A stretch of DNA of 64,000 nt from Escherichia coli (GTDB lineage Bacteria; Pseudomonadota; Gammaproteobacteria; Enterobacterales; Enterobacteriaceae): assembly GCF_044324785.1 (NCBI RefSeq), contig NZ_CP172127.1. One strand, 5' to 3'. Shown in pieces: positions 1,443 to 59,113 of this stretch (positions are counted from its first letter, which is position 1; each line of letters opens with the position of its first letter). The notes beneath the pieces were generated by a model, which ran no database searches, had not been told where the DNA came from, and was given only the letters and a program-made list of their open reading frames with translations. Made by a program: the position numbers and the translations under genes.

Positions 1443-3605
1443 ATGACAGAAAAAGTAAAACAACATGCCGCTCCGGTAACGGGCAGTGATGAAATCGATA
1501 TTGGTCGCCTGGTCGGCACCGTCATTGAAGCGCGCTGGTGGGTAATTGGCATCACCGCCGTATTCGCCCTCTGTGCCGTGGTTTACACCTTCTTCGCCAC
1601 GCCGATATACAGCGCCGACGCACTGGTACAAATCGAACAAAGCAGCGGCAATTCGCTGGTGCAGGATATCGGATCGGCATTAGCCAACAAACCGCCTGCA
1701 TCGGACGCCGAGATCCAGTTGATTCGTTCGCGTCTGGTGCTTGGTAAAACGGTGGACGATCTCGACCTCGATATTGCGGTGAGCAAAAACACGTTCCCGA
1801 TTTTCGGTGCGGGCTGGGATCGCCTGATGGGACGTCAGAACGAGACGGTAAAAGTGACCACCTTTAACCGTCCGAAAGAGATGGCGGATCAGGTGTTTAC
1901 GCTTAATGTGCTGGACAACAAAAACTACACCCTGAGCAGCGACGGCGGCTTTAGCGCCCGTGGGCAAGCGGGCCAGATGCTGAAAAAAGAAGGCGTCACA
2001 CTGATGGTTGAAGCCATTCACGCCAGCCCGGGCAGTGAGTTTACCGTCACCAAATACTCCACGCTGGGGATGATCAATCAACTGCAAAACAGCCTGACGG
2101 TAACGGAGAACGGCAAAGATGCTGGCGTTTTGAGCCTGACTTATACTGGAGAAGATCGCGAACAGATCCGCGACATTCTTAACAGTATCGCCCGTAACTA
2201 TCAGGAACAAAATATTGAGCGCAAATCGGCGGAAGCGTCGAAAAGCCTCGCTTTCCTCGCGCAACAGTTACCGGAAGTACGTAGCCGCCTCGATGTTGCC
2301 GAAAACAAACTGAATGCCTTCCGTCAGGATAAAGATTCAGTTGATCTGCCGCTGGAAGCGAAAGCGGTGCTCGATTCGATGGTGAACATCGACGCGCAGT
2401 TGAACGAACTGACCTTTAAAGAGGCGGAAATCTCCAAGCTGTACACCAAAGTTCACCCGGCGTACCGCACGCTGCTGGAGAAACGGCAGGCGCTGGAAGA
2501 CGAAAAAGCCAAACTTAATGGTCGCGTAACGGCGATGCCGAAAACCCAGCAGGAGATTGTGCGCCTGACCCGCGATGTCGAGTCTGGTCAGCAGGTCTAT
2601 ATGCAACTGCTGAATAAAGAGCAGGAGCTGAAAATCACCGAAGCCAGCACCGTCGGCGATGTGCGCATTGTTGACCCGGCAATCACTCAGCCTGGTGTGC
2701 TGAAACCGAAGAAAGGGTTGATTATCCTCGGTGCAATTATCCTCGGCCTGATGCTCTCTATCGTGGGTGTACTGCTGCGCTCGTTGTTTAATCGCGGCAT
2801 TGAAAGCCCGCAGGTGCTGGAAGAACATGGCATCAGCGTCTATGCCAGCATCCCGCTGTCGGAGTGGCAGAAAGCGCGCGATAGCGTCAAAACCATCAAA
2901 GGGGTTAAACGCTATAAACAGAGCCAGCTACTGGCGGTGGGGAATCCAACCGATCTGGCGATTGAAGCCATCCGTAGTCTGCGTACCAGTCTGCACTTCG
3001 CGATGATGCAGGCACAGAACAATGTGTTGATGATGACCGGGGTTAGCCCGTCAATCGGTAAAACCTTTGTCTGCGCCAACCTGGCGGCGGTGATCAGCCA
3101 GACCAATAAACGGGTGTTGTTGATCGACTGCGATATGCGCAAAGGCTACACCCACGAGCTGTTGGGCACCAATAACGTCAATGGCCTGTCGGAAATTCTG
3201 ATTGGTCAGGGCGATATTACTACCGCTGCTAAACCGACCTCTATTGCCAAATTTGACCTGATCCCGCGCGGTCAGGTACCGCCAAATCCTTCTGAACTCT
3301 TGATGAGCGAACGCTTTGCCGAACTGGTGAACTGGGCGAGTAAAAACTACGACCTGGTGTTGATTGATACGCCGCCGATTCTGGCAGTGACCGATGCGGC
3401 AATTGTTGGTCGTCATGTCGGAACCACGTTAATGGTGGCGCGTTATGCGGTCAACACATTGAAAGAAGTGGAAACCAGCCTGAGCCGCTTTGAGCAAAAC
3501 GGTATTCCGGTGAAAGGGGTGATTCTGAACTCCATCTTCCGCCGCGCCAGCGCGTATCAGGATTATGGCTATTACGAATACGAATATAAGTCGGATGCGA
3601 AATAA
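1443..3605 (+). CDS. wzc: Tyrosine autokinase / polysaccharide co-polymerase Wzc
   Basis: 720 aa from ATG at 1443 (MTEKVKQ...); C-terminal Tyr-rich tail YQDYGYYEYEYKSDAK; the track ORF at 1407 is a GTG-initiated upstream extension. Confidence 0.9.
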   Translation: MTEKVKQHAAPVTGSDEIDIGRLVGTVIEARWWVIGITAVFALCAVVYTFFATPIYSADALVQIEQSSGNSLVQDIGSALANKPPASDAEIQLIRSRLVLGKTVDDLDLDIAVSKNTFPIFGAGWDRLMGRQNETVKVTTFNRPKEMADQVFTLNVLDNKNYTLSSDGGFSARGQAGQMLKKEGVTLMVEAIHASPGSEFTVTKYSTLGMINQLQNSLTVTENGKDAGVLSLTYTGEDREQIRDILNSIARNYQEQNIERKSAEASKSLAFLAQQLPEVRSRLDVAENKLNAFRQDKDSVDLPLEAKAVLDSMVNIDAQLNELTFKEAEISKLYTKVHPAYRTLLEKRQALEDEKAKLNGRVTAMPKTQQEIVRLTRDVESGQQVYMQLLNKEQELKITEASTVGDVRIVDPAITQPGVLKPKKGLIILGAIILGLMLSIVGVLLRSLFNRGIESPQVLEEHGISVYASIPLSEWQKARDSVKTIKGVKRYKQSQLLAVGNPTDLAIEAIRSLRTSLHFAMMQAQNNVLMMTGVSPSIGKTFVCANLAAVISQTNKRVLLIDCDMRKGYTHELLGTNNVNGLSEILIGQGDITTAAKPTSIAKFDLIPRGQVPPNPSELLMSERFAELVNWASKNYDLVLIDTPPILAVTDAAIVGRHVGTTLMVARYAVNTLKEVETSLSRFEQNGIPVKGVILNSIFRRASAYQDYGYYEYEYKSDAK

Positions 3606-3611
3606 CGACGC

Positions 3612-3666
3612 CTGCATTCGCACCGCCCCGTAGGCCGGATAAGGCGTTCACGCCGCATCCGGCAAG
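3612..3666. repeat. REP (repetitive extragenic palindromic) element in the wzc-wcaA intergenic region
   Basis: gccccgtaggccggataaggcgttcacgccgcatccggcaag matches the enterobacterial REP consensus. Confidence 0.6.
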
Positions 3667-35849: not shown

Positions 35850-35992
35850 CATCCTGTTATCAGGGCGATTTTCGCCCTGATTCTCTTATGTTCCCTTTGT
35901 AATAATTCATTATTTTTATCATTTATCCTATAGCATTCATGGCGATTATCGCTAAACTATGGCGACTTAAAATTATTTCGTCCGTTAGGGTA

Positions 35993-36973
35993 ATGATGAG
36001 AGTAGAAAATAATAATGTTTCTGGGCAAAACCATGACCCGGAACAGATTGATTTGATTGATTTACTGGTGCAGTTGTGGCGTGGCAAGATGACAATTATC
36101 ATCTCTGTCATTGTTGCTATTGCCCTGGCTATAGGGTATCTGGCCGTTGCCAAAGAAAAGTGGACTTCCACAGCTATCGTTACTCAACCTGATGTGGGGC
36201 AAATCGCTGGTTATACCAACGCGATGAATGTGATCTACGGATCGGCTGTACCGAAAGTCTCCGACATTCAGGCTTCACTTATCGGACGTTACAGCACTGC
36301 ATTCTCAGCATTAGCGGAAACGCTGGATAACCAGGAAGAAGCAGAAAAGCTGACCATTGAGCCTACCGTTAAAAATCAGTCATTACCTTTAGCGGTTTCT
36401 TATGTGGGTGAAACACCTGAAGGTGCGCAGAAACAGCTGGCGAAGTATATCCAGCAAGTTGACGACCAGGTAAACGAAGAACTGGAAAAAGACCTGAAAG
36501 ACAACATCGCGCTGCGTATGAAAAACTTGCAGGATTCGCTGAAGACCCAGGAAGTGGTCGCGCAGGAGCAGAAAGATCTGCGTATCCGTCAGATTCAGGA
36601 AGCGTTGCAGTATGCGAATCAGGCGCAGGTGACAAAGCCACAGGTTCAGCAGACTGAAGATGTGACACAAGACACGTTGTTCCTTTTGGGGAGCGAAGCG
36701 CTGGAGTCGATGATTAAGCATGAGGCGACCCGTCCGTTGGTGTTCTCGCCAAACTACTATCAGACTCGTCAAAACCTGCTGGATATCGAAAGCTTAAAAG
36801 TTGATGATCTTGATATTCATGCTTACCGTTATGTGATGAAACCGACGTTACCTATTCGTCGCGATAGTCCGAAAAAGGCAATCACCTTGATTCTGGCGGT
36901 GCTGCTGGGCGGCATGGTTGGCGCGGGGATTGTGCTGGGGCGTAACGCTCTGCGTAATTACAACGCGAAGTAA
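35993..36973 (+). CDS. wzzB: O-antigen chain-length determinant WzzB
   Basis: 326 aa; N- and C-terminal TM segments with coiled-coil periplasmic domain; matches E. coli WzzB. Confidence 0.9.
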   Translation: MMRVENNNVSGQNHDPEQIDLIDLLVQLWRGKMTIIISVIVAIALAIGYLAVAKEKWTSTAIVTQPDVGQIAGYTNAMNVIYGSAVPKVSDIQASLIGRYSTAFSALAETLDNQEEAEKLTIEPTVKNQSLPLAVSYVGETPEGAQKQLAKYIQQVDDQVNEELEKDLKDNIALRMKNLQDSLKTQEVVAQEQKDLRIRQIQEALQYANQAQVTKPQVQQTEDVTQDTLFLLGSEALESMIKHEATRPLVFSPNYYQTRQNLLDIESLKVDDLDIHAYRYVMKPTLPIRRDSPKKAITLILAVLLGGMVGAGIVLGRNALRNYNAK

Positions 36974-36990
36974 TCTTTTCGGTTTTAAAG

Positions 36991-37028
36991 AAAAAGGGCA
37001 GGGTGGTGACACCTTGCCCGTTTTTTTT
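36991..37028. terminator. Bidirectional rho-independent terminator between convergent wzzB and hisI
   Basis: 10-bp GC-rich stem (gggcagggtg/caccttgccc) flanked by A5 upstream and T8 downstream. Confidence 0.6.
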
Positions 37029-37069
37029 GCCGGATGCGACAACAATATCGCATCCGCTTACCCCGCAAC

Positions 37070-37674
37070 TCACTGATGCCGTTTACGCAGGTTCTCAATC
37101 ACCGTCGTTAAATCCAGATCCTGATCCTGCAACAATACCAGCAGGTGATACATCAAGTCAGACGCCTCGTTGGTGAGTTCAAAGCGGTCATGTACCGTTG
37201 CTGCTAGTGCGGTTTCCACGCCTTCTTCGCCCACTTTCTGTGCAATGCGTTTGGTGCCGCTGGCATACAGTTTGGCGGTGTAGGAGGTTTCCGGGTCGGC
37301 AGATTTACGTTCGGCGAGCAGTTGTTCCAGTTGATACAGGAACAGCCACTGGTGAGCGGTGTCGCCGAAGCAGCTGCTGGTGCCTTTGTGGCAGGTTGGT
37401 CCGATAGGATTCGCCAGTACCAGTAGCGTGTCGTTGTCGCAGTCCGGCGCAATATTTACTACGTTGAGGAAATTGCCCGACGTTTCGCCTTTGGTCCACA
37501 GCCGTTGTTTAGTGCGCGAGAAGAAGGTGACTTTGCCGCTTTCGATGGTTTTGTCTAAAGCTTCCGGGTTCATATAGCCCAGCATTAGCACTTCACCGGA
37601 TACCGCGTGTTGCACAATCACCGGCATAAGTCCGTCGGTTTTTTCCCAGTCCAGTTCGCGACGTTGTTGTTCTG

Positions 37675-37681
<7 letters not shown>
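37070..37681 (-). CDS. hisI: Bifunctional phosphoribosyl-AMP cyclohydrolase / phosphoribosyl-ATP pyrophosphatase
   Basis: 203 aa, matches E. coli HisIE. Confidence 0.95.
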
Positions 37682-44103: not shown

Positions 44104-44248
44104 TTTGTTATTCCTCTTTAAACCTGTCTGAACCGTTATCAACCGCGCAATAAAAAAGCCCCCGGAAGGTGATCTTCCGGGGGCTTTCTCATGCGTTCAT
44201 GCACCACTGGAAGATCTGAATGTCTTCCAGCACACATCGCCTGAAAGA
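44104..44248 (-). promoter_or_regulatory. his operon attenuator, including the rho-independent terminator hairpin (about 44150-44186)
   Basis: Between hisL and hisG; minus-strand hairpin agcccccggaag/cttccgggggct followed by TTTTTTATT. Confidence 0.85.
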
Positions 44249-44519: not shown

Positions 44520-44620
44520 TTCCTGCCGGATGCGGCGTGAATGCCTTATCAGGTCTACAAATGTTGCCTAAATTCAATATATTGATGTTTTTGTAGGACT
44601 GATAAGCGGAGCGCATCAGT
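44520..44620. repeat. BIME-like pair of inverted REP elements in the hisL-yeeZ intergenic region
   Basis: gccggatgcggcgtgaatgccttatcaggtctac (44525-44558) and inverted partner gtaggactgataagcggagcgcatcag (44593-44619). Confidence 0.6.
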
Positions 44621-45550: not shown

Positions 45551-45595
45551 ACGATCACGCCAGCAGGACGCCGCATGCACTGCAAGGGGGCGTGT

Positions 45596-46525
45596 ATGAA
45601 ACCACTGCTGGATGTGTTGATGATCCTCGATGCCTTAGAAAAAGAGGGCAGTTTTGCGGCGGCGTCGGCTAAACTCTACAAGACGCCGTCCGCTCTGAGT
45701 TATACCGTTCACAAGCTGGAAAGCGACCTTAATATTCAATTGCTTGATCGTAGCGGACACCGCGCTAAATTCACCCGCACCGGAAAAATGTTATTAGAGA
45801 AAGGGCGGGAAGTTCTGCATACCGTGCGAGAACTGGAAAAGCAGGCGATCAAACTGCATGAAGGCTGGGAAAACGAGCTGGTGATTGGCGTGGACGACAC
45901 GTTTCCTTTTTCTCTGCTTGCGCCACTCATTGAAGCTTTTTATCAACATCATAGTGTGACGCGCCTGAAGTTTATCAATGGCGTACTCGGTGGCTCCTGG
46001 GATGCCCTGACTCAGGGTCGAGCGGATATTATTGTTGGCGCAATGCATGAGCCACCATCTTCCAGTGAGTTTGGTTTTTCACGGTTGGGCGATCTGGAAC
46101 AAGTCTTTGCGGTCGCGCCTCATCATCCGTTAGCCCTGGAAGAAGAACCGTTAAACCGTCGTATCATTAAACGATATCGGGCGATTGTGGTGGGGGACAC
46201 TGCACAGGCCGGCGCTTCTACGGCCTCACAACTTCTCGACGAACAAGAAGCTATTACCGTTTTCGATTTTAAAACCAAGCTGGAGCTGCAAATTAGCGGC
46301 CTCGGCTGCGGCTATTTACCCCGTTATCTGGCGCAACGTTTTCTCGATAGTGGCGCGTTAATCGAGAAGAAAGTAGTCGCCCAAACTCTCTTTGAACCCG
46401 TCTGGATTGGCTGGAACGAACAGACCGCAGGGCTTGCCAGCGGTTGGTGGCGAGATGAAATTTTAGCAAATAGTGCGATCGCCGGTGTTTATGCAAAATC
46501 TGATGACGGAAAATCAGCCATTTAA
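45596..46525 (+). CDS. yeeY: LysR-family transcriptional regulator YeeY
   Basis: 309 aa from ATG at 45596 (MKPLLDVLMILDALEKEGSF...); N-terminal HTH; matches K-12 YeeY. Confidence 0.85.
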   Translation: MKPLLDVLMILDALEKEGSFAAASAKLYKTPSALSYTVHKLESDLNIQLLDRSGHRAKFTRTGKMLLEKGREVLHTVRELEKQAIKLHEGWENELVIGVDDTFPFSLLAPLIEAFYQHHSVTRLKFINGVLGGSWDALTQGRADIIVGAMHEPPSSSEFGFSRLGDLEQVFAVAPHHPLALEEEPLNRRIIKRYRAIVVGDTAQAGASTASQLLDEQEAITVFDFKTKLELQISGLGCGYLPRYLAQRFLDSGALIEKKVVAQTLFEPVWIGWNEQTAGLASGWWRDEILANSAIAGVYAKSDDGKSAI

Positions 46526-46791
46526 AGAAAAATTATTATGACAAGCCTCTCATTCTCTTGTCATTTCCCCCCCATTTAGGCACAATGCGCCGCTGTCAAA
46601 AAATGACTAAAAACCGACGTTTCATCAGCGTCGGTTATTTTTTGCTTCAAACCAATCATTCATACCAAGAGGCCGGGCTTCGTACCGGATAGATATTTAC
46701 TAAAAATCGACAGTTGTTGTCGCTGAGGAATCCAAAAAAATGGGGCAATTTTTTGCTTACGCGACGGTTATCACCGTAAAGGAGAATGACC

Positions 46792-48150
46792 ATGTCGCAT
46801 AACGTTACTCCAAACACCTCTCGCGTGGAATTGCGTAAAACGCTTACGTTAGTTCCGGTTGTAATGATGGGTCTTGCCTATATGCAGCCGATGACGCTGT
46901 TTGATACTTTTGGTATCGTTTCAGGCCTCACGGATGGTCATGTGCCGACAGCCTATGCGTTCGCATTGATTGCGATCCTGTTTACGGCTCTGAGCTACGG
47001 GAAGCTGGTTCGCCGCTATCCTTCTGCTGGCTCTGCATACACTTACGCCCAGAAATCCATTAGCCCGACTGTCGGCTTTATGGTGGGTTGGTCTTCTCTG
47101 CTCGACTATCTGTTCGCGCCGATGATCAACATTCTGCTGGCGAAAATCTATTTTGAAGCTCTGGTGCCTTCCATCCCATCGTGGATGTTTGTGGTGGCGC
47201 TGGTGGCCTTTATGACCGCCTTTAACCTGCGTAGTCTGAAATCCGTAGCGAACTTCAACACTGTAATCGTCGTGTTGCAGGTAGTGCTGATCGCGGTGAT
47301 TCTGGGCATGGTTGTTTATGGCGTATTTGAAGGTGAAGGCGCTGGTACGCTGGCGAGCACTCGTCCGTTCTGGTCTGGCGATGCGCATGTTATCCCGATG
47401 ATTACCGGGGCGACAATCCTGTGCTTCTCCTTTACCGGCTTTGACGGCATCAGCAACCTGTCGGAAGAAACCAAAGATGCAGAGCGCGTGATCCCGCGTG
47501 CGATTTTCCTGACCGCGCTGATCGGCGGCATGATCTTCATCTTTGCAACTTACTTCCTGCAACTGTATTTCCCGGATATCTCTCGCTTTAAAGATCCGGA
47601 TGCGTCACAGCCTGAAATCATGCTGTACGTTGCGGGTAAAGCGTTCCAGGTTGGCGCGCTGATCTTCTCCACCATTACCGTACTGGCGTCCGGTATGGCG
47701 GCGCACGCAGGCGTTGCGCGTCTGATGTACGTAATGGGGCGTGACGGTGTGTTCCCGAAAAGCTTCTTCGGTTATGTACACCCGAAATGGCGTACTCCGG
47801 CAATGAACATCATCCTGGTTGGCGCGATTGCCTTGCTGGCAATCAACTTCGACCTGGTAATGGCTACGGCGCTGATTAACTTTGGTGCGCTGGTGGCGTT
47901 CACCTTCGTTAACCTGTCGGTTATTTCGCAGTTCTGGATCCGTGAGAAGCGTAACAAGACGCTGAAAGATCACTTCCAGTATCTGTTCCTGCCGATGTGT
48001 GGTGCGCTGACCGTTGGTGCGCTGTGGGTTAACCTGGAAGAAAGCTCAATGGTTCTGGGTCTGATCTGGGCGGCTATCGGCCTGATTTACCTGGCTTGCG
48101 TCACCAAGAGCTTCCGTAACCCGGTTCCGCAGTACGAAGACGTTGCATAA
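46792..48150 (+). CDS. plaP: Low-affinity putrescine importer PlaP (APC superfamily)
   Basis: 452 aa from ATG at 46792 ([10 protein letters not shown]...); 12-TM amino acid permease fold; matches K-12 PlaP/YeeF. Confidence 0.9.
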
Positions 48151-58130: not shown

Positions 58131-59063
58131 ATGCGTCGTGTAAATATTCTTTGCTCATTTGCTCTGCTTTTTGCCAGCCATACTAGCCTGGCGGTAACTT
58201 ATCCATTACCTCCAGAGGGTAGCCGTTTAGTGGGGCAGTCGCTTACTGTAACTGTTCCTGATCACAATACCCAGCCGCTGGAGACTTTTGCCGCACAATA
58301 CGGGCAAGGGTTAAGTAACATGCTGGAAGCGAATCCGGGCGCTGATGTCTTCTTACCGAAGTCAGGTTCGCAACTCACCATTCCGCAGCAACTGATTTTG
58401 CCCGCCACTGTTCGTAAAGGGATTGTGGTTAACGTCGCTGAGATGCGTCTTTATTACTACCCACCAGACAGTAATACTGTGGAAGTCTTTCCTATTGGTA
58501 TCGGCCAGGCTGGGCGAGAAACCCCGCGTAACTGGGTGACTACCGTTGAACGTAAACAAGAAGCACCAACCTGGACGCCAACGCCGAACACCCGGCGCGA
58601 ATATGCGAAACGAGGGGAGAGTTTGCCCGCATTTGTTCCTGCGGGGCCCGATAATCCCATGGGGCTGTACGCGATTTATATTGGCAGGTTGTATGCCATC
58701 CACGGTACCAATGCCAATTTTGGTATTGGGCTCCGGGTAAGTCAGGGCTGTATTCGTCTGCGCAATGACGATATCAAATATCTGTTTGATAATGTTCCTG
58801 TAGGTACTCGTGTACAAATTATTGATCAGCCAGTGAAATACACAACGGAACCGGATGGTTCAAAGTGGCTGGAAGTTCATGAGCCGCTGTCGCGCAATCG
58901 TGCTGAATATGAGTCTGACCGAAAAGTGCCATTGCCGGTAACCCCATCTTTGCGGGCGTTTATCAACGGGCAAGAAGTTGATGTGAATCGCGCAAATGCT
59001 GCGTTGCAACGTCGATCGGGAATGCCTGTGCAAATTAGTTCTGGTTCAAGACAGATGTTTTAA
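58131..59063 (+). CDS. ldtA: L,D-transpeptidase LdtA (ErfK)
   Basis: 310 aa; signal peptide; YkuD-domain catalytic motif ...[20 protein letters not shown]...; matches E. coli ErfK. Confidence 0.9.
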
Positions 59064-59085: not shown

Positions 59086-59113
59086 AAAAGCCTGCTTGAA
59101 AGCAGGCTTTTTT
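59086..59113. terminator. Bidirectional terminator between ldtA and the convergent tRNA-Asn
   Basis: Stem agcctgctt/aagcaggct flanked by A5 and T6. Confidence 0.6.

Follow-up and report, generated by a model that had tools for sequence, protein, structure and literature searches.

A very probable reading of the 96-bp spacer between the stop codons of the convergent genes wzzB (+) and hisIE (−) of Escherichia coli is that it contains a bidirectional intrinsic (Rho-independent) terminator, common to the ugd/wzzB transcripts on the plus strand and to those of the his operon on the minus strand. Coordinates are given within the 64,000-nucleotide stretch of DNA that was analysed (the window). According to the proposed mechanism, one GC-rich inverted repeat would be transcribed by RNA polymerase arriving from either side. 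As the RNA emerges, its hairpin would fold in the exit channel at a moment when only a weak rU:dA hybrid (G-U8 in the wzzB direction and U5-C-U3 in the his direction) remains in the enzyme, and release of the transcript would follow 5-6 nt beyond the stem. A run of A upstream of the stem on one strand would thereby serve as the U-run downstream of it on the opposite strand. A second palindrome in the spacer (palindrome 2) is predicted to form an independent, REP-type hairpin within the 3' untranslated region (UTR) of the his transcript and to play no part in termination.

The feature is already known, as it is present in published K-12 3'-end maps and its Salmonella counterpart was characterized in 1985. 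The terminator itself is thus nothing new and the site answers no open question. Its importance lies in preventing the antisense RNA that would arise if transcription of the his operon continued into the ugd/wzzB end of the O-antigen region or the reverse, and it is useful for annotation and as a compact part for two-way termination.

Anatomy of the wzzB-hisIE spacer

The region belongs to the E. coli chromosome, as the 251 bases around the site match 4564 of 5426 complete E. coli genomes, where they lie under annotated wzzB and hisIE. The wzzB coding sequence, which specifies the O-antigen chain length determinant, extends over 35996..36973 (+), and its product matches the NCBIfam WzzB equivalog NF012015 with 604.8 bits over profile positions 1-325 of 325, in agreement with the RefSeq annotation of the matching E. 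coli genomes. The start was taken from the profile alignment, the mechanical open reading frame (ORF) beginning farther upstream, at 35939. The upstream gene product is Ugd (827 bits against the NCBIfam equivalog). On the opposite strand hisIE, the final gene of the his operon, occupies 37070..37681 (−), and was assigned by the HisIE equivalog NF002747 (310 bits) and by RefSeq annotation. Between the two genes lies an inverted repeat, GGGCAGGGTG-GTGA-CACCTTGCCC (36996..37019), which can form a hairpin on both strands and was identified from the sequence, a consensus scan and folding. It is located just beyond the stop codon that ends each transcription unit, 22 nt downstream of the wzzB TAA (36971-36973, +) and 50 nt from the hisIE stop codon (37072-37070, −).

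The flanks of the hairpin differ between the two directions. In the wzzB direction the stem is followed by G (37020) and then T8 (37021-37028), together 37020..37028 (+), which become G-U8 in the RNA. In the his direction the template of the U-tract (36985..36995, −) reads TTAAAGAAAAA on the plus strand, ending with A5 (36991-36995 in plus-strand letters), such that the his RNA carries UUUUUCUUUAA directly after the stem. Both strands therefore display a GC-rich stem, a 4-nt loop and a U-rich tract immediately 3' of the stem, the features of an intrinsic terminator. A preliminary reading made from the sequence alone had described a single 10-bp GC-rich hairpin with A5 on one side and T8 on the other. 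The sequence agrees with this description, although the figure of ten base pairs is appropriate for the wzzB RNA only, as pair 6 is G·T (37001/37014) and becomes an A·C mismatch in the his RNA. Folding reflects this asymmetry. The wzzB RNA forms 10 pairs including a G·U wobble (−19.3 kcal/mol, followed by G-U8), whereas the his RNA forms 5+4 pairs around the mismatch (−13.9 kcal/mol, followed by U5-C-U3). The signal on the his side is thus weaker in both stem and U-tract. Indeed, the consensus scan called a 10-pair, 7-GC terminator-like site on the plus strand, and did not list the site on the minus strand because of the A·C mismatch in the his-sense stem.

The pattern of A-run, hairpin and T-run is far beyond what is expected by chance. 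The 111-nt region folds with −45.3 kcal/mol on the plus strand (z = −5.9) and −44.7 kcal/mol on the minus strand (z = −5.2), and none of 200 shuffled sequences folded as stably. A scan for two-way sites returned 4 in the window, whereas 200 dinucleotide shuffles yielded 0.115 on average. To qualify, a site needed five or more A among the 8 nt before the stem, five or more T among the 8 nt after it, and a stem of seven or more pairs with no more than one mismatch. When the 96-nt spacer alone was shuffled 20,000 times, the two-way motif appeared in 14 of the shuffles and a perfect 9-bp inverted repeat, such as that in palindrome 2, in 114. The other three sites in the window are located at 44158-44184 (−), 46613-46635 and 59086-59111. 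The first of these is the his attenuator, the sequence of which matches a K-12 3' end at 2090132; the second lies between two plus-strand ORFs (45575-46525 and 46786-48150), and the third just past an ORF that ends at 59063. Assignment to a known RNA family was rejected, as Rfam, searched at a permissive E-value, gave only STnc40, DapZ and microRNA models that scored 16-18 bits compared with gathering scores of 45-200, which is attributed to a generic terminator shape.

Transcript 3' ends at the K-12 site

The corresponding site in K-12 occupies the same locus between the same flanking genes, and its 24-nt hairpin (2097275-2097298) is identical to that of the window. K-12 likewise has the A-run, the T-run and palindrome 2. 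The differences are confined to the length of the T-run (T8 in the window, T7 in K-12), one base of palindrome 2 (A in the window rather than G at the last base of the left arm) and the neighbouring WzzB protein, which is ~91% identical. By this sequence comparison the window holds an allelic copy of the K-12 site and not a different thing.

Published K-12 transcript ends are available for both strands. In the wzzB direction, which is the minus strand in K-12, Term-seq (Adams et al. 2021, PMC7815308, supplementary file 1) places an end at 2097270 in two of three conditions, corresponding to the fourth U of the wzzB-direction tract. Similarly, SMRT-Cappable-seq (Yan et al. 2018, PMC6131387, supplementary file 3) reports a full-length transcript, 2098331-2097269, that contains b2027 (wzzB) only and was seen in both conditions, its end being labelled a novel termination site. 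Both data sets thus put the end of the wzzB transcript 5-6 nt beyond the stem. In the his direction the K-12 plus-strand end is at 2097303, the fifth U past the stem. This end derives from a published list of 306 bidirectional terminators, of which entry 173 is the wzzB/his site. The table used is the copy in a 2026 preprint supplement, and we infer its origin in a SEnd-seq study from the layout and from bioRxiv 10.1101/2022.10.23.513370. Entry 173 describes convergent transcripts that overlap by 35 nt (2097269-2097303) around one hairpin, with a dG of −14.2, the fold (((((.((((....)))).))))) and flanks AAAAAAAC and UUUUUCUU (7 A and 7 U). The entry covers log and stationary phase, carries the labels gene_convergent_transcription and gap_region, and names hisD, hisC, hisB, hisH, hisA, hisF and hisI together with ugd and wzzB as the affected genes. 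In window coordinates the K-12 ends fall at 37024-37025 (+) and 36991 (−).

The sequence-only reading had proposed that the hairpin terminates both the wzzB-side and the his transcripts, and had named 3'-end mapping on both strands as the check. The K-12 ends at 2097269/2097270 and 2097303 lie at the hairpin on the two strands and support the proposal, the his end being absent from one Term-seq data set. Specifically, the lists of Adams et al. (PMC7815308) contain no plus-strand (his) end at 20972xx-20973xx in any of the three conditions, while the his attenuator end at 2090132 appears in all three. The supplement of Brophy and Voigt likewise has no entry for the wzzB/his hairpin. It should be emphasized that the mapped ends lie within the U-tracts in vivo in K-12, on an identical hairpin rather than in the strain of the window, and that 3'-end maps cannot separate termination from exonuclease trimming back to a hairpin. 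We infer that the ends arise from intrinsic termination and not from processing, that this termination is Rho-independent, and that the strain of the window behaves as K-12 does.

The presence of the site in a list of overlapping convergent 3' ends raises the question of whether the hairpin is the primary cause of termination. It could be argued that head-on collision of the converging polymerases drives the process, with the hairpin chiefly stalling the polymerase and setting the ends. Indeed, the authors who defined the bidirectional class propose collision-driven termination (bioRxiv 10.1101/2022.10.23.513370). The same preprint, however, states that the class is unlike intrinsic terminators, whereas the wzzB/his site resembles one on both strands, with its flanks of 7 A and 7 U. 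Furthermore, the wzzB-strand end was mapped in rich medium, a condition that attenuates his transcription, and thus collisions are not needed in the wzzB direction. We consider the collision model improbable, and intrinsic termination at the shared hairpin is retained as the explanation for the ends.

The K-12 Term-seq data (PMC7815308) also contain 3' ends inside wzzB, at 2098243 (~58 nt into the gene), 2098289 and 2097849. The end at 2098243 is classed as not Rho-dependent and its flank is identical in the window (36038-36064), where the end would fall at ~36054 (+). An end of this type near the start of wzzB could be a premature transcript end or a processing site.

Conservation of the two-way design

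Variation at the junction within E. coli was explored in 81 sequences sampled from genomes and metagenomes. Opposite G6 of the stem, this set, which was chosen on the left arm so that only the right arm was free to vary, has T, A or G and never C. The stem is thus never perfect and the his-sense hairpin is always mismatched in these sequences. Nearly all 81 have 6-9 consecutive T as the wzzB-side tail. The his-side tail starts with U in 17 of the 81; in the remaining 64 it starts with A or G (17 of these reading GUUUCUCUU), making the tract weaker than that of the window. Judged from these sequences, the wzzB direction looks to be the stronger and better conserved signal.

The design extends to other genera. 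One genome per species was scanned with HisIE, which returned 80 loci, and in 13 of these wzzB converges on hisIE. When these 13 loci were read by eye, an A-run, a GC-rich hairpin and a T-run were found between the stop codons in every case. The genera with convergent wzzB include Citrobacter, Enterobacter, Pseudocitrobacter, Pseudescherichia and Rahnella. The junction reads AAAAAAACCGGGCTTGCCCGGTTTTTTT in Citrobacter werkmanii, AAAAAAACCGGGCAAGCCCGGTTTTTTT in Pseudocitrobacter and an Escherichia sp., AAAAAAGGCCGCTAATGCGGCCTTTTT in Enterobacter sp. Ag1 and AAAAAAGCCGCC...GGCGGCTTTTT in Rahnella. From Citrobacter to Rahnella the same junction therefore displays the same two-way design as in E. 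coli, while the stems outside E. coli are unrelated to the E. coli stem in sequence. They are short (5-9 bp), perfect and symmetric, exemplified by CCGGG-CAAG-CCCGG with A7 and T7, whereas that of E. coli is longer and has an imperfection at pair 6 in every case, and only Escherichia adds REP-type sequence. In these loci the two-way design is conserved and its sequence replaced, as selection on function predicts.

A comparable element is the his terminator of Salmonella typhimurium, which is cited (PMC3148252, PMC1590033) under the title 'convergently functional, Rho-independent terminator' (Carlomagno, Riccio and Bruni 1985, J Bacteriol 163:362). This terminator has been employed as a strong terminator part, 'His-T' (PMC3148252), and serves as the cited example of a two-way terminator (PMC1590033). 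It is likewise located at the end of the his operon, belongs to the same class of element and, as judged from the title, is reported to work both ways. The HisIE scan of one genome per species returned no Salmonella locus. The Salmonella hairpin is probably analogous to that of E. coli rather than the same sequence, since the other genera have unrelated stems at the hisIE-wzzB junction.

The imbalance between the two directions could indicate that the element is a terminator for wzzB alone. Here, the hairpin and U8 would end the wzzB transcript, while his transcripts would read through, be ended later by Rho or otherwise, and be trimmed by exonucleases back to the hairpin, generating an apparent 3' end. 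This would fit with the lack of the his-strand end in the Term-seq lists, the weaker his-sense stem, and a his U-tract that is variable and often imperfect across strains at junctions where the T6-T9 run on the wzzB side is nearly always kept. Against such a one-way model, the K-12 plus-strand end at 2097303 lies exactly where intrinsic termination predicts it, and a U5-C-U3 tract directly after a stem of −13.9 kcal/mol is within the usual range. In addition, the relatives retain a symmetric A-run and T-run at the junction, and the Salmonella his terminator is reported, in the title cited in PMC3148252 and PMC1590033, to function from both sides. As the his end falls exactly on the last U of the U5 run, and as both runs are retained in the relatives, one-way termination is unlikely, and termination of both transcripts at the hairpin remains the preferred reading.

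Palindrome 2 and the polymorphic spacer

The second palindrome lies between the hisIE stop codon and the terminator, in the his 3' UTR. It consists of CGGATGCGA (37031-37039), the 8-nt loop CAACAATA (37040-37047) and TCGCATCCG (37048-37056), identified from sequence and folding and able to form on both strands. The palindrome had been noticed in the initial reading, which set its limits at 37030-37057, one base too wide on each side; the arms span 37031..37056. It could be proposed that palindrome 2 is a second functional terminator or an attenuator for one of the two transcription units, as its hairpin is stable (−14.9 kcal/mol on the plus strand and −18.9 kcal/mol on the minus strand) and its pairing has been kept through compensatory changes. 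The palindrome, however, is followed by CUUACCCC on the plus strand and GCAAAAAAAA on the minus strand; as neither provides a U-tract, it is not an intrinsic terminator. Furthermore, no ends are mapped at K-12 2097239-2097264 in the Term-seq, SMRT-Cappable-seq or bidirectional lists, and the palindrome is absent from the other genera. A role in ending or attenuating transcription is thus highly improbable, and palindrome 2 is treated below as an extragenic repeat.

Comparison with canonical REP sequences reveals both similarities and differences. Palindrome 2 starts with the REP head GCCGGATGCG (10 of 10 positions) and its tail agrees at ~10 of 12, while the interior differs. Its end reads ...ATCCG-CTTAC compared with ...ATCCGGCCTAC in a canonical REP of the window (3631-3665); the final bases are CTTAC in the window and TCAGC in strains with the long form of the spacer described below, not CCTAC. 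Thus, in common with canonical REP/BIME elements, palindrome 2 has the head and an extragenic position, in the 96-bp spacer, and in many strains it adjoins two canonical inverted REPs, whereas it departs from them in its interior, in its perfect stem and in the loss of the terminal CTAC. A 41-nt query comprising palindrome 2 and its flanks was single-copy (a median of 1 and a maximum of 2 places per genome) in a BLAST search against 28 Gb that is blind to the 10-nt head alone. No REP feature is present at this site in the K-12 RefSeq record, which is uninformative because the record is devoid of any REP features (REP144 is missing from its known position). On these sequence features we call palindrome 2 REP-like or REP-derived.

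The pairing of palindrome 2 has been preserved as its sequence changed. Among 26 distinct variants 88% of cells pair, and in two pairs both partners have changed (A-U to G-C and C-G to U-A). The covariation score lies above that of all 500 shuffles; these changes, however, go together in a few lineages, and template switching can also let a DNA palindrome correct itself. The loop (37040-37047) was also seen to occur in both orientations. Either CAACAACA or CAACAATA is common, and the exact reverse complement, TGTTGTTG, occurs in two loci (L008, L136) as well as in 18 of 5426 complete genomes. The flipped loop fits an inversion in which strands switch between the inverted arms.

The spacer is also polymorphic in length. 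Exactly between the T-run and palindrome 2, at the point 37028/37029 of the window, 23 of 75 sampled junctions contain a BIME of 86-89 bp that comprises two canonical inverted REPs, which palindrome 2 then abuts. This long form was seen in L003, L004, L007 and L009 and in many metagenome loci. A 10-nt direct repeat, CCGGATGCGA, flanks the segment on both sides, so that loss of the DNA between its two copies could convert the long form into the short one that the window and K-12 have. The window may therefore carry a deletion derivative. Escherichia albertii also has the long form, which suggests, on this distribution, that the long form is the older of the two. In at least five loci an element of the IS200 type lies directly after the T-run of the terminator (~37028), the same point as the BIME polymorphism, and splits the hairpin from palindrome 2. 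These loci are L005, where positions 1-600 hold an annotated IS200C transposase, and the metagenome loci L111, L125, L159 and L203, which share the end GTGCACAGAAAACCCCCAGCTAGGCTGGGGG.

A tentative proposal, which we regard as possible but doubtful, is that the point after the T-run is a recurrent entry and exit site for elements mobilized by HUH-type transposases (the REP pair was seen in about one in three sampled junctions, IS200 in no fewer than five), and that palindrome 2 is kept paired by selection, for example as a stabilizer of the his mRNA 3' end. Alternatively, palindrome 2 may stay paired through templated self-correction; the two compensatory changes and the rare loop inversion are consistent with both possibilities. 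Canonical REP/BIME sequences are also present elsewhere in the window, at 3590-3665 and 44524-44620; GTAGGCCGGATAAGGCGTTCACGCCGCATCCGGC (3631-3664) is one example, and the stretch 44524-44620 holds an inverted pair.
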